A DNA stretch of 32,960 bases, taken from IMG/VR virus record IMGVR_UViG_3300045988_088052; one strand, written 5' to 3'. Positions 667 through 32,197 of the stretch are shown here, piece after piece (positions within the stretch are counted from its first letter, which is position 1; every line of letters starts with the position of its first letter). The position numbers and the translations under genes are program-made. The stretch is from a virus. The notes beneath the pieces were generated by a model. It saw nothing but the letters and a program-made list of their open reading frames with translations, did no database searches and was not told where the DNA came from.

Positions 667-741
667 TGGAGCACCCGATAGGGCTTGAACCTATAACTCG
701 CTGCTTACAAGGCAGCCGCTCTACCATTGAGCTACGGGAGC
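667..741 (-). tRNA. tRNA-Thr (anticodon UGU) with encoded CCA
   Basis: The reverse complement folds by hand into a cloverleaf: GCTCCCG TA GCTC AATGGTA GAGC G GCTGC CTTGTAA GCAGC GAGTT ATAGG TTCAAGC CCTAT CGGGTGC T CCA. The D, anticodon and T stems pair perfectly. The acceptor stem has one U:U mismatch at 3:70. Confidence 0.8.
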
Positions 742-5541: not shown

Positions 5542-5882
5542 TGTGTTACCTCCTCTATGTCAATTTCTGTTCTTGGGTTTTTGGGGTCATATGCCCCACG
5601 CAGCCGCAGCTCGACATGGTCAAAGCTATCATCTGCGATTACTCCCCGGTGTACCAGCCCGTCCATCAGCATCTTGCCGTTGTAGTTGTCCGGGTCATGC
5701 CGGTGCCTGGTTGGAAAGTAGTAGGTGATAGTCACCACCGCCTTGCCCATTGGTTTGCACTTGGGGCAGTATGCAACAAACAGCTGCAGCCAGCGCTGCT
5801 TTTCTGCCCGGTAGTCCCAGGCGTTCGCCCGTCCGGCGTACTTGTTCAGAGATGGCGGGATTTCGGGGATCGTTATTTTCAC
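5517..5882 (-). CDS. rusA: RusA-family Holliday-junction resolvase
   Basis: IPPSLNKY...HRHDPDNYNGKMLMDGLV...ADDS is the RusA pattern. GTG start follows GGAGG. Confidence 0.8.
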   Translation of the reverse strand: MKITIPEIPPSLNKYAGRANAWDYRAEKQRWLQLFVAYCPKCKPMGKAVVTITYYFPTRHRHDPDNYNGKMLMDGLVHRGVIADDSFDHVELRLRGAYDPKNPRTEIDIEEVTQWVNTERK

Positions 5883-6460
5883 GCATTTTCCTCCATCATC
5901 CGCTCCGCCAGCGCTATGTCATAGCTGGGCAGCTGCTTTACCTCGGCCATACCGGCCAGCTTTGCCCGGATATCCGCAGGCAGGGCTTGCATTTTTCGCT
6001 CGCTCTCCTGCCTTGCCCGGTAGCTGCGCATAAAGTTGGACTGCACCACGCTCTGCACTGTCCCGGTGTCCATGCTGGCCCATTCCCGCAGCTGGGATGG
6101 GTGTCCTACCAATCGTTGTAGGTTCTCCGGCAGGGCTGCAAACTCTTTCTCGCTGTTGTAGCCGCTGTTCCGCAGGGCCTTTGCAATCAGCGCCCATGCT
6201 TCCCCCTCGGAGAGTTCCGCCGGGCGGCTGATCTCCCCGATGCTGGCGATAATAGCCCCAATATGCGGGGGGAAACCCTTGCGGTCGCTGGCAATGTGGG
6301 ACTTAACCGCCGCTGCCACAAGGTTAGCCGGGTAGTCTGCCAGCATCTCCGACCACAGGTTCACCACCGCTTCCGCATCCTGCCGCTTCATGTCCCTGTA
6401 GTAGCCGGGGTATGCGGCCTTGAGGATGGACATAACAGCCAATGTTTCAGTACGGTTCAT
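5879..6460 (-). CDS. G39P-like replicative helicase loader/inhibitor
   Basis: MNRTETLAVMSILKAAYPGYY...VNLWSEMLADYP...FPPHIGAII resembles the SPP1 G39P N-terminal family. ATG at 6460 follows AGGAGGAGGG. Confidence 0.55.
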   Translation of the reverse strand: MNRTETLAVMSILKAAYPGYYRDMKRQDAEAVVNLWSEMLADYPANLVAAAVKSHIASDRKGFPPHIGAIIASIGEISRPAELSEGEAWALIAKALRNSGYNSEKEFAALPENLQRLVGHPSQLREWASMDTGTVQSVVQSNFMRSYRARQESERKMQALPADIRAKLAGMAEVKQLPSYDIALAERMMEENA

Positions 6461-7106
6461 GTTGTCCCTCCTCCTGCAGCATCTGCAAAAATACATTGTC
6501 GGTCCCACCAGCAGACTTGTCGGCTTTCAACGGGTAAACATCCTGCCAGCAGCGCTTAACGCTCTGATCGAGAATAAGTCCCTTGGTGTGGTTGTCCCCC
6601 GGTGCCAGCCGTTCCAGCTCATTCAGGATCATCTTTGCGGCACGATCAGTGAGGGGCTTTTTGATTTTCTTGCGCATCTCACAAAAGCCGTTCCAGTTCT
6701 CCATCAAGGCTTCCGGGACATCCACACGCCCCCTTGGGGGGGTAGGGGGGGTATTATTCCCGGAGGGAATATTTTCTTTGTCTTTGTCTTTGTCATTGTC
6801 TTTGTCTTGGCTTTTCTGGGTTTTTGAAAAACCCGCTGGGTTTTTTGGGTTACATTGGGTTTTCTTCGGCCTACCGCCCTTGGAACCGTTTTCCCTGCTT
6901 GTTTTGGCTCTTCCTTCGCATTCAGCAGCCATCCGGTCTATTTGCAACTTTGCTACCGGCCATATAAAACGCTCGTTTCCCCGGAAATCGGGGGCTGCGC
7001 CCGTCTCTGCATATTTCAGCATAGCCGTGAACAGCCGCCCTCTCTCCGCATCTCCGAGTTCCTCCATGGCATCTGCAAAGTCTGTAAAGACTTTAAGGTA
7101 CTTCAT
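6447..7106 (-). CDS. Replisome-organiser / DnaD-domain-like replication protein
   Basis: The N-terminus (FADAMEELGDAERGRLFTAMLKYAETG) is joined to a C-terminal WNGFCEMRKKIKKPLTDRAAKMILNELERL domain by a low-complexity DKDNDKDKDK/PPTPP linker. Confidence 0.55.
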   Translation of the reverse strand: MKYLKVFTDFADAMEELGDAERGRLFTAMLKYAETGAAPDFRGNERFIWPVAKLQIDRMAAECEGRAKTSRENGSKGGRPKKTQCNPKNPAGFSKTQKSQDKDNDKDKDKENIPSGNNTPPTPPRGRVDVPEALMENWNGFCEMRKKIKKPLTDRAAKMILNELERLAPGDNHTKGLILDQSVKRCWQDVYPLKADKSAGGTDNVFLQMLQEEGQHEPY

Positions 7107-7146: not shown

Positions 7147-7545
7147 TTAATTAAAAGGGAGGTCGTTAGGGTCTCCCTCGACTTCTTCAAATCCGCCCTG
7201 CTCACTCTCTGCGGGCTTTTCCTCTGCTTTTCCGGTAGATTTGCTTCCGCCGAAAAGGGCTTCCTCTGCGATAACCTCGGTGGCTGTGCGCTTATTGCCG
7301 TTCTTGTCCTCGTAGTTGCGAACTTCGATGCGCCCCACAATGGTGATAAGGTCGCCCTTGCCAAACCACTGGTTCACGAATTCCGCGGTCTTGCCCCATG
7401 CTACGATAGGGACGAAGTCAGTCTTTTCCCGGTCACGGCTGCGGCCTACGGCGATGGTAAAGCCGCATACGCTCTTACCGTTCTGGGTCTGTTTCAGCTC
7501 GGGGGCCTTGGTCAGCCGCCCATTAAGTATCGCTTTGTTCAGCAT
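7147..7545 (-). CDS. ssb: Single-stranded DNA-binding protein
   Basis: MLNKAILNGRLTKAPELKQTQNGKSVCGFTIAV...IVAWGKTAEF... is an OB-fold pattern, with an acidic C-terminal DLPF tail. ATG at 7545 follows GGAGGA. Confidence 0.9.
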   Translation of the reverse strand: MLNKAILNGRLTKAPELKQTQNGKSVCGFTIAVGRSRDREKTDFVPIVAWGKTAEFVNQWFGKGDLITIVGRIEVRNYEDKNGNKRTATEVIAEEALFGGSKSTGKAEEKPAESEQGGFEEVEGDPNDLPFN

Positions 7546-7886
7546 TCTGTTTCCTCCAAATAGTTCGTGTAAAATTCCTCCCGGAACATCGGGATCGTGA
7601 AATCGTAGTTGTCGATACAGGCTTGCTCGCCCAGCCGGTGCAGCCAATCCATCACCTCTGCACAGCCGTGTGCGTGTGCCAGGTGGCATGGCGTGTGGCA
7701 CAGGGAAACCCAAAGGCCCATGCGCTTGCTTTTGCTCCGCATGGCGTTGCCGAATATTTCGTGCCGGTCGAACTTTACGCCGGAGCGCTGGCACAAAAAG
7801 CACTTTGATGTGTCGGCCTGTACGATGCTCGGAGCGTAACCGTTTCGGTCAAGCTCTGCGCCCCATTCGTTTTTCATTTTCCCCAT
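7539..7886 (-). CDS. Putative HNH/Ref/NinG-like zinc-binding nuclease
   Basis: The motif is CFLCQRSG...DRHEIFGNAMR...LCHTPCHLAHAH. The family assignment is tentative. Confidence 0.35.
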   Translation of the reverse strand: MGKMKNEWGAELDRNGYAPSIVQADTSKCFLCQRSGVKFDRHEIFGNAMRSKSKRMGLWVSLCHTPCHLAHAHGCAEVMDWLHRLGEQACIDNYDFTIPMFREEFYTNYLEETEC

Positions 7887-8431
7887 TCCTCCTTTAGCAA
7901 GGCCAGCTCGGCCGGAGTGGCAACATCTATCCCTTGCTCTTTGCAGTCTGCGATGACGGCATCCAGCAGCCGGGACATCTGTTTGGTGTTGTAGGTGCTG
8001 CTGCCGTAGTACAGCCGGATCACCAGATGGTCACCGTCTGGCTCGTAGTCTACCTGTTCCGTTACCCAGCCAGTACCGAGCATTTCCCACGCTGTCCGGA
8101 CGGTCTTGGCGGCTTCCGGCTCGATATTGTGCACATCCTTCCAGATGCCAACCTCCTTAATGTACTTCCGGTACAGCTCCTCCTTAGTCAGCGGGGCCGC
8201 CTGGGTGGAGAGGGTAAAGGCCAGATCATCAAGGAGCGCCCAAAGGTACGAGTTGGCCGAAAGGCTCCTGCGCTCGTGGTGCTCCTTTAGTTCGGCGGCG
8301 TACATCTTGCCGGGCTTCATTTCATCAAGGAAAGCCTGGGCGGCTGCGGCATCTTTGGTATACAGGGTGATGCCGTAGCCGTTCCGGTCTCTTGTCCAGT
8401 CGGCAGAATCAAACCGGAGCCTTGTTTTCAT
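7874..8431 (-). CDS. NinB/Orf-like recombination mediator (tentative)
   Basis: RRSLSANSYLWALLDDLA resembles the lambda NinB RSLDQNRKLWACLGDV motif. ATG at 8431 is preferred over the ORF-track TTG at 8458. Confidence 0.45.
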   Translation of the reverse strand: MKTRLRFDSADWTRDRNGYGITLYTKDAAAAQAFLDEMKPGKMYAAELKEHHERRSLSANSYLWALLDDLAFTLSTQAAPLTKEELYRKYIKEVGIWKDVHNIEPEAAKTVRTAWEMLGTGWVTEQVDYEPDGDHLVIRLYYGSSTYNTKQMSRLLDAVIADCKEQGIDVATPAELALLKEEWGK

Positions 8432-9008
8432 TCTTCTCGGTCTCCTTTTCGGCGGCAAAGGCTTTCTTCTGGCAGTTGGTGCACAGCTTTCGGCCGAACC
8501 GCTGGACGCTGTAGGCGGCGATCTCGCTTACTGGCCAATACTCCCCGTTGCGCTTGTTGATACCGGTGATCTGCTGCCCGCAGTCGATGCAATACTCGGT
8601 AGGCTCCGGTTCTCTTTCTGCGCCCTCCGGTAAGTCCTCGCCAGCGTAGATATACAGGCCAAGGCCATGACGGGCACAGGCTTTTGTAAGGGAACGCTGG
8701 ATTGCCTTATTGGCATCGAATGAGGTAACATCACTGGCCGGGATTGAGCGGTTGCGGTTATCCATGACCGGCAGATACTCGATGTGCTCAATGCCGTTGA
8801 CGGTTACGCCAGTCTTAACCCAGCAGGTCTTACCGTCTGTGTGGTAAAACAGGCCGTTAGCATCCTCGTAGATGGTATAGGTGGCATCCGGGTGCAGCTT
8901 CTTGATTTCTCCCCAGGCCCATGCCCAGGAAAGGTATGTAAGGCCATTCTTCTTCTCTGTCTTGTCAGAGCAGTTGATGCTGTTCAATTCTCGAAAGTAG
9001 TTCTCCAT
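8409..9008 (-). CDS. Sak/Rad52-like single-strand annealing protein with C-terminal zinc ribbon
   Basis: The pattern NGLTYLSWAWAWGEIKKLHPDATY...AIQRSLTKACARHGLGLYIY matches the Sak/DUF1071 family. A C-terminal CIDCG...CTNC is appended. Confidence 0.65.
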   Translation of the reverse strand: MENYFRELNSINCSDKTEKKNGLTYLSWAWAWGEIKKLHPDATYTIYEDANGLFYHTDGKTCWVKTGVTVNGIEHIEYLPVMDNRNRSIPASDVTSFDANKAIQRSLTKACARHGLGLYIYAGEDLPEGAEREPEPTEYCIDCGQQITGINKRNGEYWPVSEIAAYSVQRFGRKLCTNCQKKAFAAEKETEKNENKAPV

Positions 9009-9017
9009 AGCTCCTCC

Positions 9018-9233
9018 TTAATATCTGTCTGGTTCTTCATCAAAGTACCTGTCAGCATCCGCATCGCTGGCGTCAAAACGCTTAACACAGTTTTCACAGC
9101 CAATGACCATTCCGTCCTTAATGTAAATTGTCTCGTTGATCTCGCAGCCGCACTCCGGGCAGATGTGCGGCTTATCATCGTAGTTATCCACCCAGCTCGG
9201 GATGGGCCTATCCGGGATATCGTATGGGTTCAT
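9018..9233 (-). CDS. Hypothetical zinc-ribbon protein (71 aa)
   Basis: CPECGC...CENC motifs with an acidic tail. Confidence 0.55.
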   Translation of the reverse strand: MNPYDIPDRPIPSWVDNYDDKPHICPECGCEINETIYIKDGMVIGCENCVKRFDASDADADRYFDEEPDRY

Positions 9234-10168
9234 GCTTCCACGACCTCCCCATTTTCCAGTTTGTAAAATACCCCAGGTTTTATAATCTCACCATCTACCT
9301 TTACAGCTCGCACCTCTTTAATTGGGAAAGTATCACCATTCCAGCCACACCTCTCGGTTAGGACGAGCCAGCATCCAATGGCGCCGGATGCCTTACTATC
9401 AACTCCGGTGACGATTGCAATAGACTCCTTCCCATCAACGGTGGCTGCGCTACGGTAGCCGGTGTTGGTGGCTGCACTACGGTCGCCGGTGTTGGTGGCT
9501 GCACTACAGCAGCCGGTGTTGGTGGCTGCACTACAGCAGCCGGTGTTGGTGGCTGCACTACAGCAGCCGGTGTTGGTGGCTGCGCTACGGTAGCCGGTGT
9601 TGGTGGCTGCACTACAGTCGCCGGTGTTGGTGGCTGCGCTACGGTAGCCGGTGTTGGTGGCTGCACTACGGTTGCCGGTGTTGGTGGCTGCACTACAGTC
9701 GCCGGTGTTGGTGGCTGCACTACGGTTGCCGGTGTTGGTGGCTGCACTACAGTCGCCGGTGTTGGTGGCTGCGCTACGGTAGCCGGTGTTGGTGGCTGCG
9801 CTACGGTAGCCGGTGTTGGTGGCTGCGCTATAGTTGCCAGTCTGAGTTTTGCTGCTCTCGGCTTTTTCTTTTATGTACTCAACCGCAGCTTTTACAATAC
9901 CAGCGATACCGATTTCCGCCCGGAGCTTTATTTTCGTTCCAGCTCGCTTGCTGTCACCTTCTTCTTCTTCGTCCGTCACACCATCGAGGTCAGCCACGAA
10001 AAACCGACTGTCGGCCGGTGCGTAATGGGCGAACACATCCAGCGGATACTCGCATCCATGGAAACCTTTATTGCATAGTTTCGCTTCCTCCTCCACATAT
10101 TCTTTGCCAAGATCGAATTTGAGGCCTCGGCATTTCATGTCCTTGTCGGTTCCCTTGTAGACGATCAC
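9230..10168 (-). CDS. Repeat protein: conserved N-domain, about 15 x 9-aa SAATNTGxx repeats, C-domain
   Basis: GTG start lies 7 nt after GGGGAGGG. The N-terminus (KCRGLKFDLGKEY...LCNKGFHGCEYPLDVFAHY) recurs in uncharacterised phage proteins, from memory. The central 135 aa are near-perfect nonapeptide repeats. Confidence 0.75.
   Translation of the reverse strand: MIVYKGTDKDMKCRGLKFDLGKEYVEEEAKLCNKGFHGCEYPLDVFAHYAPADSRFFVADLDGVTDEEEEGDSKRAGTKIKLRAEIGIAGIVKAAVEYIKEKAESSKTQTGNYSAATNTGYRSAATNTGYRSAATNTGDCSAATNTGNRSAATNTGDCSAATNTGNRSAATNTGYRSAATNTGDCSAATNTGYRSAATNTGCCSAATNTGCCSAATNTGCCSAATNTGDRSAATNTGYRSAATVDGKESIAIVTGVDSKASGAIGCWLVLTERCGWNGDTFPIKEVRAVKVDGEIIKPGVFYKLENGEVVEA
9434..9838. repeat. 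27-bp tandem repeat, about 15 units (coding)
   Basis: The minus-strand unit is GGC-[TAC/GAC/AAC/TGC]-[CGT/TGT]-AG[C/T]-GCAGCCACCAACACC. All other positions are invariant across units. Confidence 0.9.
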
Positions 10169-15890: not shown

Positions 15891-16325
15891 TTATGCCTCC
15901 TCAAAATACTGGCCTATAAGCTCATGCGGCAGGTAATACAGCACGATGGTGCCGGTCTCATTCAAACGCTTGCAGAGGTAGGTTTTGCTGTCCTCCGGGT
16001 CGAGGTAGTACTTTCCGTACTCGTACTCCATGCCCCTCGATGCCTGGATGGGGTCATCAATCGTTCCGGGAGAACTGGTGTTGACGACTACCCACAGGGC
16101 AGGAACAGCCGGGGGTTCCCAGTCTGCTTGCGAGGTGTGCGCCTGCAAGCACTTGTATACCTTGCCATCGTGTCGTCTGCGGTCACCCACCGCATACTTG
16201 GTATCAACTTCCCATGGTAGGAACAGCATGGGGTTCTTTGCTGCATCAGCGTCCGCCATGGCGCCGGTCACGCTGTCAATGCTCGTCCGGATTTCCTGCG
16301 CCTGCTTCAAGATATCATCCCGCAT
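15891..16325 (-). CDS. CBM5/12-like carbohydrate-binding protein (tail/lysis accessory)
   Basis: YAVGDRRRHDGKVYKCLQAHTSQADWEPPAVPALW matches the chitin-binding-type Y-x-GD...GK-Y-x-C...W-x-P...LW pattern. Confidence 0.5.
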   Translation of the reverse strand: MRDDILKQAQEIRTSIDSVTGAMADADAAKNPMLFLPWEVDTKYAVGDRRRHDGKVYKCLQAHTSQADWEPPAVPALWVVVNTSSPGTIDDPIQASRGMEYEYGKYYLDPEDSKTYLCKRLNETGTIVLYYLPHELIGQYFEEA

Positions 16326-16326
16326 T

Positions 16327-16446
16327 AGATGTTTCCTCCTTTTCTTCGGTTTCTACGCCAAGGGTTTGCAGAGCTGCTTTTAGCTGTTCCAACTCTGCTT
16401 CCTGCTTTGCTTTTACTTCTTTGGCTTTTTCGGTATAATAACCCAT
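16327..16446 (-). CDS. Hypothetical 39-aa coiled-coil peptide
   Basis: Hand translation gives MGYYTEKAKEVKAKQEAELEQLKAALQTLGVETEEKEETSNAG. Overlaps occur at both ends (TAATG upstream; the 3' end overlaps the next ATG). Confidence 0.35.
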
Positions 16447-17735
16447 TAAGTCACCCCCATAATATTAAGAGCATTAAGTGTATCAAGGATATAACTTTCG
16501 CCAGAAAGTGTTTTCCACTGATTTGTAGTTGTATCGTAAATATAAGCATTTGTGAGTTGGGCGATGTTGTTTGAATCTCCGATGTAAGCGTTTCGTAAGT
16601 AGGCTTCAAATTCGGATTTTTGACCTTTTACGACTGTGAATGGATTGTCAAAACCAAAGTCTGCTTGTAGAAATAAATGATTTTGTTGCAAAACAGTCGA
16701 TTGTGTAAATGTTTCTACTGAAGAAACTCCAGAACCACCAAGAAGATAAAATTTATCACCAACAAATCCACAGCAAGCTGATACTCTACTTGCGTGCAAT
16801 TCAGACTCAAGCACGTCAACGGCCAAGTTATCTAAATTTACACGAATTATCTTTTTTTGATACTGAGTAGAATCTATATTTCCAAAGATATATGCATAGC
16901 TACCGATTCTACAGCACCTATTTGCTTGGTTCACCATATAAGGTAGTACATTGTTATTCTGAGTATATTCTTGTGTATCGACATCAAATGTCTGTATAGA
17001 CTTCCGTGGGTCAAATGAGACTCTTGTTGTGCCTCCAAATACATAAACTTTGCTTCCTACTGCAACACAAGCTGCATTATAGGTTCCTTGAGCTTGTACT
17101 GGCATATTTCCATGATAAGTAAATTTTTCTGTTGTTACATCGAAAACTGATACAGTAGCAGAGTTTGTACTTCCAATAAATGAGCCAACAAGAAATATTT
17201 TATTGCCACTAACACAGCCACTTGAAAAATAGTATACTTGCGAACCGGGAAAGGGATAAGAAACATTTCTTAGTGTAGTTTTTTCTCCTGTTTCCAAATC
17301 AAACTTATCTACATACTCGGAATCTGCTCCAACATTATGATTAAAAGTATATATGTATTTGCCAACAGTAAATGCGAGTACATAATATTGGTAAACCAGG
17401 TCTGAATAAAAAGTCGTTTTTTCTCCCGTTGTTACATCATATCTATATATATCATTTTGCTGGCTACCTGTATATGGACAAACAGAATAAATATAATTAC
17501 CGTATGAACACATTTGCGGGTAGTCATTTCTAAGCTGAGAAAAACCAACTGTCCAATTCTTTGTCTCCGTGTATTCATTTCCATAATTCAAAACAGGACT
17601 GCATTTCACGAAGTCTGGCTTACTTACCAACGGAACCCATAGTTTGCTTGTATCTACGGGAGGGGTGGAACCAAAGTCAATGTTCAAATCAGCTCCACCA
17701 CCACCCAATGTAATAGGATTTCCTAAAATACTCAT
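16446..17735 (-). CDS. Receptor-binding tail fibre, Kelch-like beta-propeller (paralog 1)
   Basis: About six blade motifs are visible (KVYVFGGTT, KFYLLGGSG, YAYIFGN, KIFLVGS, YIYTF, YIYSV). The N- and C-termini are shared with paralog 2. The ATG at 17735 gives MSILGNPI, parallel to paralog 2. The ORF track used GTG at 17741. Confidence 0.7.
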   Translation of the reverse strand: MSILGNPITLGGGGADLNIDFGSTPPVDTSKLWVPLVSKPDFVKCSPVLNYGNEYTETKNWTVGFSQLRNDYPQMCSYGNYIYSVCPYTGSQQNDIYRYDVTTGEKTTFYSDLVYQYYVLAFTVGKYIYTFNHNVGADSEYVDKFDLETGEKTTLRNVSYPFPGSQVYYFSSGCVSGNKIFLVGSFIGSTNSATVSVFDVTTEKFTYHGNMPVQAQGTYNAACVAVGSKVYVFGGTTRVSFDPRKSIQTFDVDTQEYTQNNNVLPYMVNQANRCCRIGSYAYIFGNIDSTQYQKKIIRVNLDNLAVDVLESELHASRVSACCGFVGDKFYLLGGSGVSSVETFTQSTVLQQNHLFLQADFGFDNPFTVVKGQKSEFEAYLRNAYIGDSNNIAQLTNAYIYDTTTNQWKTLSGESYILDTLNALNIMGVT

Positions 17736-17759
17736 ATTCACCCTTTCCGGGGTGAGTAT

Positions 17760-19129
17760 TTAGTTCACCCCTAATATATTTAGTGCGTTCTGCATATCCG
17801 CTACATAGCTTTCACCGGAGAGGGATTTCCATTTGAGGTCTTTGCTGTCGTAGAGATATGCGTTTGTTAATTGTGCTATATTGTTACTGTCCCCAAGATA
17901 GGCATTGATTACCTTAACCTTTAAGTCTGTATCTTTGGATTTAAGCGCCGTCCACAGTCCATCGTAGCCATAGTCTTCTTGCAAGAACAGGTGGTTGTTA
18001 GTAAGGGGAGTTTCAACGACAAATTTCGCTGTATATGGAACTTTTGCAACCATATAACTCCCACTTTTCGATGCATTATTAGGAGCGCATATTATATACT
18101 TTGCTTCGTTTATTTTATAAAATAATGCCCATATACTAACTTGCGGAAGAACAGTAGAAAGCTGCGTAAATTGATTTGTAGCTGTGTCAAATTTATAAAT
18201 AGTATTTATTTGCGAATCGGGAATGTCATTATTAAAATCTGTTGAAGAGCCACCAAAACAATAAATGTATCTGCCATAAGATATGCAGGTCATCCCAGCA
18301 ACATTAACAGGATATGTTGTTACAGATACACATGTATCATTTGAAATATCATAAGCATACACACCATTTTTAGGAGAATATTGTTGTGCTCCTCCCATTA
18401 TGTATATCTTCGAACCAACAACACATGTCGTAAACATCTTTCCCGGTATTGGAATTTTTGCATTTGATATCAATGCAGAGTTCGTATTTAAGTCAACTAT
18501 TTTAATTGAGTTGGTTGTGTTAGCGTAAGATATGCGTATTCCACCAAACAGGTACAATTTATTATTGGCGTATTCCATCGCCATATAGTTAATTTCTGAA
18601 GCGCCTAACGAAGAGTCGAAAGGCAGAGAACAAATTTTTTCTGCTGTTTTTGTAGTTAAATTGCTTTTAATTATAGAATTACTATAACCCGTTCCCGAAA
18701 TTGATGTGGAATTTATCGCACAATAAACAATGTTCCCGTGTTGACAAAAAGAATAGCGGCCTGCGTTTGATGAAGACCCATCGTGACCTAAAACAGAATT
18801 CATTGTTACTTGGTCAACAACATTCGTTTCAATATTCAATCTTTTTAATGCTGTACCGGAATACCCCCAATACAAATAATTTTCATACTGAAATGAAGAA
18901 GACCAGCTGCCACGTGCGCTTGCAAATTCATTGCCAGTTCCAATCTCAGAATAATTACTTAAATACTCACTTCCAAATGCCAATTCTGGCTTACACTCAA
19001 CAGCATCAGGCTTTTTCTCCAAAGGCACCCATAGTTTAGTTGTGTCTGTCGGAGGGGTAGAACCGTAATCAATGTTGAGTTTTACCCCCCCCCGTTGGTA
19101 ATTATTGGATTGCCATAGATGATGCTCAT
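17760..19129 (-). pseudogene. Receptor-binding tail fibre, Kelch-like beta-propeller (paralog 2), interrupted by a G9 tract
   Basis: The ATG at 19129 overlaps the upstream stop (ATGA) and encodes MSIIYGNPIITNGGG, then a stop. The rest (VKLNIDYGSTPPTDTTKLWVPLEKKPD..., 17760..19085) is in the -1 frame. One extra G or a -1 slip restores a 455-aa protein colinear with paralog 1. Confidence 0.7.
19085..19093. repeat. Homopolymer G9 (C9 on the plus strand) at the frame break
   Basis: Counted directly: C at 19085..19093. Confidence 0.95.
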
Positions 19130-19998
19130 GCGGTTACCTCCGTTATCGTTACCTGTACCGCCATATCCGCATTGGGCTTTTCGCCCATTGCTTTGGCGGT
19201 AAGGGTACCATTGTTGTTCTCAATCCAAAGGGCAGATGTGCCGCTGTCTATGATAACGCCAAGAGCGGTTGCGTCCATCTGGATATCCACCTTGCTGTTG
19301 GCCGTAGTTCCAAGCCCGCTGATGGTTTGGCTGTACGGACTTTCGGAGCCGAGCCAAGATGCCGCAGGAAGCGAAAGCTGCTTAATAACAACCGCACGGT
19401 TTATCTTGTACTCCATCTTTCCGATGGCCTGCGTTACCGTGTCTGTTGTGGTTACATTCTGCCGGGAGGTTGCCTGCTTGTAGCCGGGGATTTTGATTTG
19501 GCTGCCGGTGTAATCGCCGGTTTGCGGTGTCACCGCTCCGGTGCGGCCGTTAAAGCTCGCAACAGTACCGGGGCTGATGGTGTGCGCTACATACTGCAAA
19601 TCGGAGATCATTGTGGGCTGGGCTGTGTAAGTGGCTATCGGCAGCTGGTACACAGTACCGCTTGCATTGATATCCTCCTGCACAAGTGCCGGAAGCGGAT
19701 CGGCTGCCTGCGTCACAAAAGCAATCGGCGCTTCGGTGTTTGCCATGTCAATTTGGATAAGCAATCTTCCGGGGACGGAACCGCTGGTCGGAAGCGTCGC
19801 ATTGATCGTCTGGGCTTCCACGACAAAGTTTCGGCCGAGGATTATACCACGGCCATCGGAAACATTGATGATGTTACCGCCCTGTGTAGTTACCTCAACG
19901 CCAGTAAAGATCCCGCTGTCGTTGATAATGTGATTGTATAGATACGCATCATCAGTCGGCGTGACGATGGATGCGTTATACTGGAGCAGCGTTATCAT
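19126..19998 (-). CDS. Tail fibre / baseplate-associated protein (290 aa)
   Basis: The call rests on position, between the Tal-like protein and the receptor-binding genes. The protein is Thr/Gly/Ala-rich and looks beta-rich. ATGA coupling occurs at both ends. Confidence 0.5.
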   Translation of the reverse strand: MITLLQYNASIVTPTDDAYLYNHIINDSGIFTGVEVTTQGGNIINVSDGRGIILGRNFVVEAQTINATLPTSGSVPGRLLIQIDMANTEAPIAFVTQAADPLPALVQEDINASGTVYQLPIATYTAQPTMISDLQYVAHTISPGTVASFNGRTGAVTPQTGDYTGSQIKIPGYKQATSRQNVTTTDTVTQAIGKMEYKINRAVVIKQLSLPAASWLGSESPYSQTISGLGTTANSKVDIQMDATALGVIIDSGTSALWIENNNGTLTAKAMGEKPNADMAVQVTITEVTA

Positions 19999-26558: not shown

Positions 26559-28244
26559 TTAGGAAGCCTTGGTTACATTGACGGTGTAAACAACAGTCTC
26601 GTTACCGTTCTTTACAGTGACGGTCAGAGGATGGGCAGTACCATCGGCCAGCCAGGTAACAGTGCCGCCGTTCTTCACATTGGCGTTGTTGTAGGCAATA
26701 GCGACCTGCGCACCGGCAACCTCGGTAGTGGCGTTTACTGCAGCAGTCGCAGCGGAAGCGGTAGCGGTGTAGCTCAGCACATCGCCATCAAAAGCAGGGC
26801 TGAGGGACAGGTTTCCAACGGTCAGAGCGGACAGCTTGGCGTTGTTGGCGGTATCAGCCGCAAAGGTCATGGAGGTGGTTACGGAAGCGCCGTTAATGTT
26901 GATCGCCACAAAAGCGCCGGGGATAACGGGCATACCGTCAGCGCGCTCTTTGCCGCGGAATACGGTGTTGTCCTGAATGAACTGAACCTCGCGGGATGCT
27001 TCGATAGTCATGCCGGAGCGCTGCGCCCACAGGTACAGGTCGCCATAGCCGCCAACGATGTCGCCATCGGGGATAAATTCGAGGATTTCCACATCACCGC
27101 CGATGATGGGCATGGTCATACCGTCAAAGGTGACATACCGGCCCAAAGCGGTAGCAAGGATTGCCTTGGACTGCAGAGTAGCCAGGGTCTTGCTATTCAT
27201 AGCCCAGAAGCGCTCGCCGCGGGAATAGCGGGTGAAGGTGTTACCAGCAGCAACAGCCAGCGCAGCCCAGAAAGCCTCGCCGGTAGAAGCGGTGGGAATG
27301 GTGATGATGTTGGAGGTATGCAGGTCAACCCAAGCAGGAGCATTGGCCGGGTAATCGCTAGGCTTGCTCTCCTGTGCCAGACGGGTCACGATACCGAGAG
27401 GCATCTTCTGACCAGCGCCCTTACCGTACAGGATGGCCTTATCCTTGGCAAGGCCGATAGCCTCGGACAGCATCTCGACGATCCAGGAAGCAAGGTTTAC
27501 ATCGTTATCCTCCAGCAGGGAGTTACAAACAGGAACATAACCGGCAACCTTGAAACCGTCGAGGGTGATCTGGTTAAAGCTGAAGGTCAGCTCATTGATA
27601 GCGCCACACATTTCAGTCCAAACGGCCTCGGGGACAGTACCGGCAATGGTCTGACGGGCTTCGCCATTGACATTGCGGATGCGGACACGACGCATCAGCT
27701 TGGAGTAGCGATACATATTCTCGGCAATGAGCTCGAGGAATACAACAGGGATGGTCAGCTCGCCACCGGTGATATCTCTCTTGCTGTGGGCAGCGTTACG
27801 CAGCTCCGCAAAGAAGGTCTGCACATCGGGCTGGGCTACGATAGCGTCACGCTGCTCCTTGGGGAGAGCGTCAAAGGCGCGTACATTCATAGGGAGGGAG
27901 CGAATGTTGATGGTATTCATAGTAAAATCATTCCTTTCGTCTTTCTTTTTGGGTTCGTGGTCAGCTTTTGGTGGATCTTTTTCAGCGTTTTCCAAATCCT
28001 CCTCAAGGCCCTTAATTTCTGCGGACAGCTTTTCCTTTTCGGCGTTGTGGGCATCCTGATCCTCGGTAAATTGGTTCATTGCATCCTCAACTGCCTGCTG
28101 CTCCTCTTCGGTAGTGGCTTCGCCAATAGCCTTTTCGATTTCAGCGGAGCGGGTTGCAAATTCGGCGTCCTTGGCGATCAGCGCATCAAAAGCGGCCCTT
28201 TTCAGTTCCAGCTTTTTGGCGATCATGATGGATTTCAGTGCCAT
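26559..28244 (-). CDS. HK97-type major capsid protein with C-terminal cadherin/Ig-like beta-sandwich domain
   Basis: An N-terminal coiled-coil delta-like region (aa 1-105) is followed by an HK97-fold core ending about aa 450. A C-terminal extension of about 104 aa begins LSALTVGNLSLSPAFDGDVLSYTATA. Confidence 0.88.
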   Translation of the reverse strand: MALKSIMIAKKLELKRAAFDALIAKDAEFATRSAEIEKAIGEATTEEEQQAVEDAMNQFTEDQDAHNAEKEKLSAEIKGLEEDLENAEKDPPKADHEPKKKDERNDFTMNTINIRSLPMNVRAFDALPKEQRDAIVAQPDVQTFFAELRNAAHSKRDITGGELTIPVVFLELIAENMYRYSKLMRRVRIRNVNGEARQTIAGTVPEAVWTEMCGAINELTFSFNQITLDGFKVAGYVPVCNSLLEDNDVNLASWIVEMLSEAIGLAKDKAILYGKGAGQKMPLGIVTRLAQESKPSDYPANAPAWVDLHTSNIITIPTASTGEAFWAALAVAAGNTFTRYSRGERFWAMNSKTLATLQSKAILATALGRYVTFDGMTMPIIGGDVEILEFIPDGDIVGGYGDLYLWAQRSGMTIEASREVQFIQDNTVFRGKERADGMPVIPGAFVAININGASVTTSMTFAADTANNAKLSALTVGNLSLSPAFDGDVLSYTATASAATAAVNATTEVAGAQVAIAYNNANVKNGGTVTWLADGTAHPLTVTVKNGNETVVYTVNVTKAS

Positions 28245-32100: not shown

Positions 32101-32197
32101 GGCTTCCCCTTTCTCAAAAATATACCGTAGAGTTGGAAAAAGTTCCCCCCGCCGGTCCCCATAGACAGGCGGAAGGCGCAACGGATAGGGGGGGGTA

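Follow-up and report, generated by a model that had tools for sequence, protein, structure and literature searches.

A portable two-slot Kelch-propeller module with a putative poly-G phase switch in a temperate human-gut siphovirus

The viral genome recorded in IMG/VR as IMGVR_UViG_3300045988_088052 (32,960 nucleotides; the whole stretch is referred to here as the window) encodes on its minus strand, at positions 16446..19129, two tandem proteins of the Kelch β-propeller type. The upstream gene of the pair, here called slot 1, is interrupted close to its start codon by a run of nine guanines (G9) that places the remainder of the gene out of frame, while the downstream gene, slot 2, is intact. 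Comparison of this cassette with its relatives makes it probable, in our assessment, that it constitutes a portable two-slot host-recognition module of a temperate human-gut siphovirus, in which the Kelch propellers are exchangeable and the propeller in slot 1 is phase-variable by means of the poly-G tract. Two lines of evidence carry this reading, i.e., a tract whose length, as judged from the assembled sequences, changes faster than any base substitution, and propeller cores that are replaced wholesale between conserved ends.

Results

The poly-G tract in the window

The leader reading frame of the slot-1 gene (19082..19129, minus strand) opens at an ATG at position 19129 and reads MSIIYGNPIITNGGG followed by TAA, which corresponds to the OFF state. 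The tract itself (19085..19093, minus strand; G9 on the coding strand, C9 on the plus strand) lies 36 nucleotides (nt) after this ATG and overlies conserved Gly-Gly-Gly codons. The TAA follows directly after the G9, and the remaining 441 codons are found in another frame. This gene body (17760..19085, minus strand) is open in the frame restored by G10; the remainder of the N-terminal anchor (VKLNIDYGSTPPTDTTKLWVPL...) is followed in it by a divergent Kelch core and, at 17760..18023, by a C-terminal module. Either G10 or G7 would restore a protein of 456 amino acids (aa) that is collinear with its paralogue. In general terms, the slot-1 gene is in frame only if the tract length modulo 3 equals 1: G7, G10 and G13 are ON, while G8, G9 and G11 are OFF, with a stop codon encountered within 0–5 codons. 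The original prediction, made from the sequence of the window alone, had described two adjacent genes of about 430 and 455 aa; the two are indeed paralogues, but the gene of 455 aa is not an open reading frame (ORF), as it had been read through the G9 frameshift, and the tract responsible was overlooked.

Other devices for generating variation were sought in the same region. Inverted repeats are absent from 16000..19500, as are long direct repeats, which between the two genes could promote an internal deletion, and neither a reverse transcriptase nor an invertase is present among the 30 ORFs scanned (the two Kelch genes and 28 others, not all small ORFs being included). A diversity-generating retroelement or an invertible segment was rejected on these grounds for the parts scanned.

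Tract length among related phages

For the comparison, 70 related loci from IMG/VR, two from ENA/Logan and 38 metagenome loci from ENA/JGI assemblies were used; some of the separately fetched ENA/JGI metagenome contigs may duplicate IMG/VR contigs. Across 90 related gut-phage contigs the tract spans G7 to G20, with G9 the commonest length. The main leader context is ACCAAC-Gn-TAAAACTCAACAT, and a second leader class has the form GGA-Gn-CGCTAAGCTAAA. In the main class, the IMG/VR loci are distributed as G7 (6), G8 (7), G9 (19), G10 (11), G11 (6), G13 (2) and G20 (1), with 18/49 in frame, and the ENA/JGI loci as G7 (2), G8 (4), G9 (18), G10 (5), G11 (7), G13 (2) and G20 (0), with 9/36 in frame. 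The in-frame share is thus about one third, the value expected for an unconstrained frame. In the second class (GGA-Gn-CGCTAAG), four G7 tracts (OFF) stand against four G8 tracts (ON). Contigs with 300–1200x coverage read G8 or G9.

The tract is a property of the first slot. Runs of at least seven guanines occur in 63 of 72 slot-1 leaders and in none of 52 slot-2 genes, where the same glycine motif is always encoded by mixed codons (GGT GGT GGT GGA or similar). GGG is the rarest glycine codon of the family (14%), and no run of six or more guanines was detected across 150 kb of gene bodies.

Length variation is most apparent among close relatives. Tracts differ in 10/19 pairs with identical 1.3-kb bodies and in 13/15 pairs with 1–3 differences; the window (G9), for instance, has the same body as the loci L003 (G10), L004 (G11) and L100 (G9). 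A 6.8-kb alignment of six close relatives contains 459 substitution columns and a single frameshifting indel, which is the tract, and runs of A6–A7 keep a constant length throughout. The bodies downstream of a shifted frame are nevertheless preserved: 34 of 35 out-of-frame slot-1 genes retain an intact body of 405–439 codons, the same core type occurs in both the ON and the OFF state, and the ratio of non-synonymous to synonymous substitution rates (dN/dS) is 0.14–0.26 within core clusters that mix ON and OFF members. A hypervariable tract combined with intact bodies and low dN/dS is the signature of a contingency locus and not of decay. Three of the features that define such loci, i.e., a 5′ coding homopolymer of at least 7, length polymorphism among near-identical genomes and intact OFF genes, are found here in the assemblies.

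The frames described above also invite a reading in which the G run is a recoding site, and ribosomal −1 frameshifting or transcriptional slippage yields the full-length protein at a low set level, especially from G9. Long homopolymers are known slippage sites for RNA polymerase, and G9 is the commonest state in both data sets. In the G9 frame (GGG GGG GGG TAA) the run is followed at once by a stop codon, which is thereby placed in the A site, and to judge from the sequence a −1 slip would restore the consensus N-terminus, giving exactly the G10 product. However, RNA structure in the 100 nt that follow the tract is no better than that of shuffled sequences (z-score 0.04); the absence there of any stable or unusual structure leaves a classical programmed frameshift signal unsupported. 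Programmed −1 ribosomal frameshifting is recognized by a fixed slippery sequence together with a stimulatory structure, and the length of the tract is variable rather than fixed. Furthermore, G8 and G11 would require a shift in the opposite direction, yet account for about a quarter of the contigs, and in-frame genotypes are common (~31%). We consider recoding unlikely as the explanation of the locus; it could, on the other hand, add leakiness to a DNA-level switch instead of replacing the switch.

It is also conceivable that the length differences are sequencing or assembly errors, that the gene is uniformly in frame as G10, and that the cassette consists of two ordinary, constitutive tail-protein genes. 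Homopolymer lengths are prone to error, the most frequent call (G9) lacks a single base relative to the in-frame G10, and contigs break at the tract, with two of them ending exactly there. Several aspects of our data count against phase variation in the same sense. All tract-length evidence takes the form of differences between assemblies, not reads. In addition, a non-coding G8 run in the same genomes (32188..32195 in the window), between the HNH endonuclease gene (stop codon 32198) and the small-terminase gene, is likewise polymorphic, with lengths of 6–10 in 66 relatives (G7 in 45, G8 in 14, others in 7). Its polymorphism indicates that G runs are generally unstable or error-prone in these data, and deprives the comparison of a clean negative control for sequencing error. 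This second run is, however, shorter and less variable than the Kelch tract. Several properties of the Kelch tract itself speak against error: lengths of 7–20 that include 7, 10 and 13, with differences of 3–6 nt, are atypical of consensus errors; SPAdes contigs still give G8 or G9 at the high coverage noted above; the second leader class is evenly split between G7 and G8; and runs of A7 and A8 in the same genes are stable. The retention of the tract against codon bias, and in slot 1 only, fits a selected mutable site. Weighing both sides, we regard error as an improbable account of the variation. As a separate observation, many contigs end within ~40 nt of the run at 32188..32195, which may be located in the cos region or represent an assembly breakpoint.

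Composition and fold of the Kelch paralogues

The cassette stands out by composition. Its guanine-cytosine (GC) content is 0.368 over 16446..19129, compared with 0.533 and 0.496 in the flanking 2 kb on either side and ~0.51 in the rest of the window; it is the lowest-GC 2.7-kb stretch of the window, and the two Kelch genes have 36–37% GC. On the 3′ side the boundary is sharp, GC dropping at the slot-2 stop codon from 0.47 to 0.34. The AT-richness and the sharp edge that had been described from spot counts therefore persist on recalculation, but the flanks are at ~50% (47–62% in 100-nt bins) and not at the 55–70% that had been estimated.

The slot-2 gene (16446..17735, minus strand) encodes 429 aa from an ATG at 17735, which, in agreement with the length of its homologues, is probably the start in preference to a GTG at 17741. 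The GGGG motif of its N-terminal anchor is encoded GGT GGT GGT GGA, without a homopolymer, and its C-terminal module is located at 16446..16709. Between the slots, a junction (17736..17759, minus strand) holds a ribosome-binding site, GGAAAGGG, upstream of the slot-2 ATG. Together with the adjoining coding DNA for the slot-1 C-terminus and the slot-2 N-terminus, this junction forms the most conserved DNA of the module, at 88–96% identity across loci.

The two Kelch proteins align end to end (32% identity, E 5e-60; BLASTP); conservation is strongest over ~55 aa at the N-terminus and ~87 aa at the C-terminus, and the cores are divergent. The strong divergence of the blades had been anticipated in the original prediction, as had a C-terminal module of about 80 aa, for which we find ~87 conserved aa, 55% identity between the paralogues and the motifs quoted; the N-terminal anchor is longer than the ~35 aa proposed, the conserved segment being ~55 aa. 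Kelch models of Pfam (e.g., PF24681, PF01344 and PF13964) were applied with their curated gathering scores, and both proteins exceed the cut-offs: the slot-2 protein scores 93.9 bits for PF24681 (cut-off 50), 48.5 for Kelch_1 (20.1) and 53.1 for Kelch_6 (25.3), and the frame-restored slot-1 protein 68.5, 51.8 and 56.6, respectively. An AlphaFold2 model, which covers the slot-2 protein only and was built on a 66-sequence alignment, places six four-stranded blades in residues 55–348 with a predicted local distance difference test score (pLDDT) of ~90. The propeller is thereby confirmed for the downstream protein, as is the count of about six blades that had been proposed for each of the two. The top 50 Foldseek matches of this model in the PDB are all Kelch domains (KLHDC3, LZTR1, KLHL12, Keap1; probability 1.0), eukaryotic in origin, with target-normalised template modelling (TM) scores of ~0.6–0.7.

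The C-terminal module is β-rich, and its central part resembles one more Kelch repeat; a profile search against PDB sequences gave nothing credible (E 0.36 or worse). Among 1.84 billion representatives the module has 90 matches, almost all of which end proteins of 420–460 aa. The occurrence of the module is thus restricted to the family, on which account we reject the idea that other head domains share it as a general adaptor. Seven short fragments were the sole matches of the 57-aa N-terminal anchor in a word-indexed search.

Exchange of cores between slots and phages

Megablast comparisons show where the cassette is mosaic. Many contigs keep their tail genes at 92–97% identity to the window until ~137 nt into the slot-1 gene, where similarity is lost; identity returns over the slot-1 C-terminus, the junction and the slot-2 N-terminus, is lost again in the slot-2 core, and is regained near the slot-2 stop codon. 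In related contigs unrelated cores are in this way framed by identical tail genes upstream and an identical carbohydrate-binding and lysis module downstream. Measured ungapped across 27 non-redundant two-slot loci, DNA identity is ~0.8 over the N-terminal codons, ~0.35 (the random level) in the cores, and 0.77–0.96 in the stretch that leads across the junction, from the C-terminal codons of slot 1 to the N-terminal codons of slot 2.

The 117 complete genes of the family fall into 33 core clusters at 80% identity. In 17 loci the core of the window's slot-2 gene occupies slot 2 and lacks a poly-G tract, and in 5 loci it follows a poly-G leader in slot 1; a second core cluster, too, is represented in both slots. 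In single-gene loci (e.g., L016 and L073) the poly-G leader is fused to the one core, an arrangement which shows that internal deletions have occurred elsewhere. A 92%-identical copy of the slot-2 gene (locus L001) is carried by a phage with Baseplate_J, sheath-initiator and wedge proteins, PolIII-alpha and Thy1, i.e., a lytic-looking phage of myovirus type with ~37% GC, in which the cassette follows the Baseplate_J and wedge genes. Irrespective of backbone GC, which ranges from 34% to 57%, the cassette has 36–42% GC, and this retention by its pieces of their own composition argues for recent spread.

Taken as sequence evidence, these patterns support movement of cores between slots and between phages by recombination at the conserved ends. 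A horizontally exchanged cassette had been proposed from the window, and the mosaic contigs, the copy in a myovirus-type phage and the shuffling of 33 core types between slots and phages bear it out. Of the two roles that had been suggested for the conserved ends, that of recombination junctions stands, but that of general adaptors does not, the C-terminal module being found only on the family proteins of ~420–460 aa.

With respect to distribution, a genome scan found the Kelch locus four times, one of these in a probably contaminated Helicobacter pylori assembly. The contig that holds this locus, L073 (NZ_JAHXLB010000019.1, 'Helicobacter pylori strain SHZY19' contig_19), is 23.6 kb long; its tail genes share 97% DNA identity with those of the window, and only one Kelch gene is present. 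Most probably it represents contamination by gut-phage DNA, not a prophage of H. pylori. Distant relatives are located in assemblies of Oscillospirales and Erysipelotrichales. Among 50,697 phage records searched by tblastn there is no cultured-phage homologue, save one weak match to a Paenibacillus phage structural protein.

Neighbouring genes and the place of the Kelch proteins

The order of tail-tip and lysis genes is tape measure protein (TMP; PF10145), Dit (Dit_N), a tail protein (phrog_7064), a 290-aa protein, the two Kelch proteins, a protein with a carbohydrate-binding module of type 5/12 (CBM5/12), holin and Amidase_3. The cassette accordingly forms part of the tail-tip module and follows TMP, Dit and Tal, and both Kelch genes are positioned on the minus strand between the tail-tip genes and the lysis genes.

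The 290-aa tail protein upstream of the cassette (19126..19998, minus strand) resembles in its modelled fold, with a putative shoulder-neck-head layout, the receptor-binding protein (RBP) of the lactococcal phage p2, and its stop codon overlaps the slot-1 ATG (ATGA). It has no Pfam or other sequence-level family match; some of its homologues carry tail-collar or collagen domains. Its AlphaFold2 model (pLDDT 73) matches 2bsd, 1zru and 2wzp in Foldseek (E 5e-8 to 2e-6, probability 1.0), with TM scores against the p2 receptor-binding protein that are low (0.34–0.42) and a neck modelled at pLDDT <50. The N-terminal (shoulder) domain matches SPP1 gp22. The C-terminal ~100 aa (residues ~185–290) form one domain that is conserved upstream of every cassette: the upstream proteins of other loci, which range from 132 to 782 aa, have only this domain in common with the 290-aa protein, and in myovirus-type loci it is a stand-alone protein of 135 aa. 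Its conservation in this position makes the domain a candidate docking platform. We also observed that residues ~200–290 weakly resemble H-type lectins, namely Helix pomatia agglutinin (2ccv; probability 0.75) and SLL-2 (3wmp; 0.69), and on this modelled likeness the domain might bind sugar itself, beyond docking.

Downstream of the cassette, a charged, coiled-coil-like ORF of 43 aa (16315..16446, minus strand) has an ATG that overlaps the slot-2 stop codon, and a 42-aa ORF occupies the matching position in the myovirus-type locus L001. The next gene encodes a 144-aa protein with the CBM5/12 module (15891..16325, minus strand), which accompanies the cassette at 88–96% identity in nearly all loci. 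This gene keeps ~57% GC everywhere, standing out as a 57%-GC island from the 37%-GC phage of L001, and its constant composition, like that of the cassette, argues for recent spread.

A receptor-binding role is compatible with the location of the genes in the tail module, with their translational coupling and with the sugar-binding fold of the products. With a p2-like protein directly upstream, the Kelch proteins are more likely to be accessory or secondary receptor-binding proteins than the sole one, and we infer from synteny and models that they are sugar-binding proteins of the tail tip in this accessory or secondary sense. Annotation points the same way: 34 of 66 Kelch family members match phrog_16120 ('virion structural protein'), and the structure matches in BFVD include Kelch proteins of jumbo phages annotated as virion proteins. 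Comparisons with cultured phages, the PDB and PHROG gave no homology to an experimentally defined receptor-binding protein. Some considerations tell against a role in host recognition as proposed here. Synteny and fold are the whole basis on which virion incorporation, sugar binding and docking are put forward; the conserved termini of the slot-2 model, to which docking would be assigned, have low confidence (pLDDT 25–50); and the p2-like upstream protein, to judge from its model, could by itself be the primary receptor-binding protein.

The same gene order can be taken to mean that the Kelch proteins are not part of the virion, but lysis-associated, host-modifying (cell-wall targeting together with the CBM5/12 protein and the amidase), lysogenic-conversion or exclusion factors. 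The location of the genes between the tail genes and holin/amidase, their travelling with the CBM5/12 gene and the lack of a proven receptor-binding protein among their homologues are in agreement with this. Against it, slot 1 is translationally coupled to the p2-RBP-like tail protein, the conserved upstream domain co-occurs with every cassette, even behind baseplate genes of myovirus type, and the jumbo-phage Kelch proteins bear virion-structural annotations; by eye, with no predictor run, no signal peptide or membrane segment stands out. We find a non-virion function rather improbable. Still weaker, and in our view very improbable, is the notion that slot 1 is a decaying pseudogene, i.e., a redundant duplicate being lost, which the out-of-frame state in the window and in about two thirds of related contigs might suggest, but which we reject in view of the gene bodies (34/35 out-of-frame copies without another lesion in ~1.3 kb) and the dN/dS values, with retention of the tract across diverged backbones and the occurrence of one core type both ON and OFF also opposing it.

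The window genome

The window is a complete-looking genome of a temperate HK97-type siphovirus, with nearly every gene on the minus strand and no sheath gene. Its genes comprise those for HNH endonuclease, small terminase (Terminase_4), TerL, portal, S78 protease, capsid, head-tail connectors, tail tube and TMP, besides the tail-tip and lysis genes. The integrase, on the plus strand, adjoins the amidase, and this adjacency of integrase and lysin shows that the window represents the phage permutation of the genome, as opposed to an integrated prophage. Genes for recombination and replication form a block that encodes a Sak single-strand annealing protein (SSAP; 8409..9008), SSB (7147..7803) and a G39P-type helicase loader (5879..6508), all on the minus strand, a toolkit that fits the extreme mosaicism of the Kelch cassette. 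A Sak-type annealing protein would favour recombination on short homologies.

Further features of the window were observed outside the cassette. At 6736..6751 and 6775..6808 the DUF6291 ORF (6447..7106, minus strand) contains a pair of neighbouring G runs of 7 nt each (C7 on the coding strand) beside a (TCTTTG)x5.7 microsatellite, which are further candidate slippage sites. The 312-aa product of the ORF 9230..10168 (minus strand), which begins with a DUF7666 domain, contains 'SAATNTGxR' nonapeptide repeats encoded by a tandem repeat of 27 nt (14.5 copies, 93% match; 9440..9830). The ORF of the major capsid protein (26559..28244, minus strand; 561 aa) ends with a Cadherin-like β-sandwich domain that perhaps represents a decoration protein joined to the capsid subunit. 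A tRNA-Thr (TGT) gene is present at 667..741 (minus strand), in the early region of the phage.

Discussion

In the mechanism that we propose, each slot protein would consist of a conserved N-terminal segment of ~55 aa, an exchangeable six-bladed Kelch propeller and a conserved C-terminal module of ~87 aa. The propellers would act as lectin-like binders of host cell-wall glycans, and the N-terminal segments would dock on the conserved C-terminal domain of the p2-like upstream protein. New specificities would be gained by homologous recombination in the conserved terminal and junction DNA. Slipped-strand mispairing at the poly-G tract during replication would generate mixed progeny, some virions carrying both propellers and others the slot-2 propeller alone, and such mixed propeller content would serve as bet-hedging against variable host surfaces. 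The putative switch would read OFF (G9) in the window.

A broader picture is possible, and we offer it only tentatively. The cassette may be a widespread, self-contained plug-in module of uncultured human-gut phages, made up of docking domain, two lectin slots, CBM5/12 protein and poly-G switch, and passed between siphovirus- and myovirus-type phages that differ greatly in GC content. The commonest genotype, G9, would then be decoded at a low level by a −1 slip, and tract length would tune how much of the second lectin each virion carries, beyond switching it on or off. It is a matter of speculation that a −1 slip at GGG-TAA in the G9 state, which would give the G10 product, is a source of leaky expression.

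The host range of uncultured gut phages is a major unknown, and a poly-G run over the glycine motif followed by TAAAACTCAACAT marks a putative switchable host-recognition gene in at least 100 metagenomic contigs. If the proposed switch is real, contingency loci like those of Campylobacter phages and T-even coliphages exist in human-gut phages as well, both temperate and of lytic type; the N-terminally truncated or 'frameshifted' tail genes that gene callers report in these phages would find an explanation; and the distribution of tract lengths in reads would be a direct read-out of phage bet-hedging in vivo. The conserved ends, the exchangeable propellers and a docking domain that occurs on two tail types would also offer a natural template for host-range engineering.

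Comparison with known systems

We found no published paper on this Kelch family or on a poly-G switch of this kind in gut phages, and the parts of the system have to be compared with different precedents. The arrangement of the tail tip is similar to that of the lactococcal p2 baseplate, with the gene order TMP, Dit, Tal, a protein of (here putative) shoulder-neck-head layout and further binding proteins, and the model of the 290-aa upstream protein matches its p2 counterpart by fold (PDB codes 2bsd, 1zru and 2wzp). Lactococcal siphophages use saccharide receptors on Gram-positive walls, as is proposed for the Kelch module; the BppU-BppA-BppL baseplates of Tuc2009 and TP901-1 are a further point of comparison. 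Unlike in lactococcal baseplates, the distal position is taken here by Kelch propellers, conserved at both termini, and not by small β-sandwich heads, and the domain of the 290-aa protein in the head position is conserved, not variable as in p2.

A β-propeller is an established receptor-binding fold in phages of Gram-positive hosts. The receptor-binding protein Gp45 of the Staphylococcus siphophage phi11 has a five-bladed propeller platform that binds wall-teichoic-acid sugars (PMC4901313). The phi11 protein differs from those described here in that its propeller is five-bladed and not of the Kelch type, and in that it is a single long trimeric protein; among the top matches of the slot-2 model there is no relation to it by sequence or by Foldseek.

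The G segment of Mu and the C segment of P1, which are invertible, and diversity-generating retroelements are other phage host-range switches. Systems of this sort are cited in PMC12823448. They have in common with the Kelch module the alternative expression or diversification of tail proteins within one phage lineage, but the Kelch module would combine homopolymer frameshifting with cassette recombination.

Contingency loci based on homopolymers have recently been reported for the coliphages T2 and T4 (Gomez, Barrick and Waters 2025, bioRxiv, PMC12633550), where homopolymer slippage is viewed as a bet-hedging device in phage genes, as we propose here. Homopolymers are depleted in coliphage tail-fibre genes according to the same work (PMC12633550); in contrast, the tract described here is maintained in a tail-module gene, and is longer, commonly 9–10.

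The closest precedent is provided by the Fletchervirus phages of Campylobacter, in which poly-G receptor-binding genes are already known. According to the passage of PMC12633550 that cites Sorensen et al. (2021, Cell Rep 35:109214), the receptor-binding genes of these phages carry G7–G11 tracts; the same study is cited in PMC10877375 and PMC12823448. As those accounts present it, length changes of the homopolymer in a host-recognition gene shift the frame and give phenotypically mixed populations, which is the behaviour proposed for slot 1. The gut phages differ from Fletchervirus in that the module is so far known from sequence, in that they have a lysis and tail module of Gram-positive type on both siphovirus and myovirus backbones, and in their use of the Kelch propeller fold. 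Furthermore, the tract has a fixed position over a conserved glycine motif, at a distance of 36 nt from the start codon; of the two tandem slots, the first alone would be switchable; and the unit as a whole is mobile.

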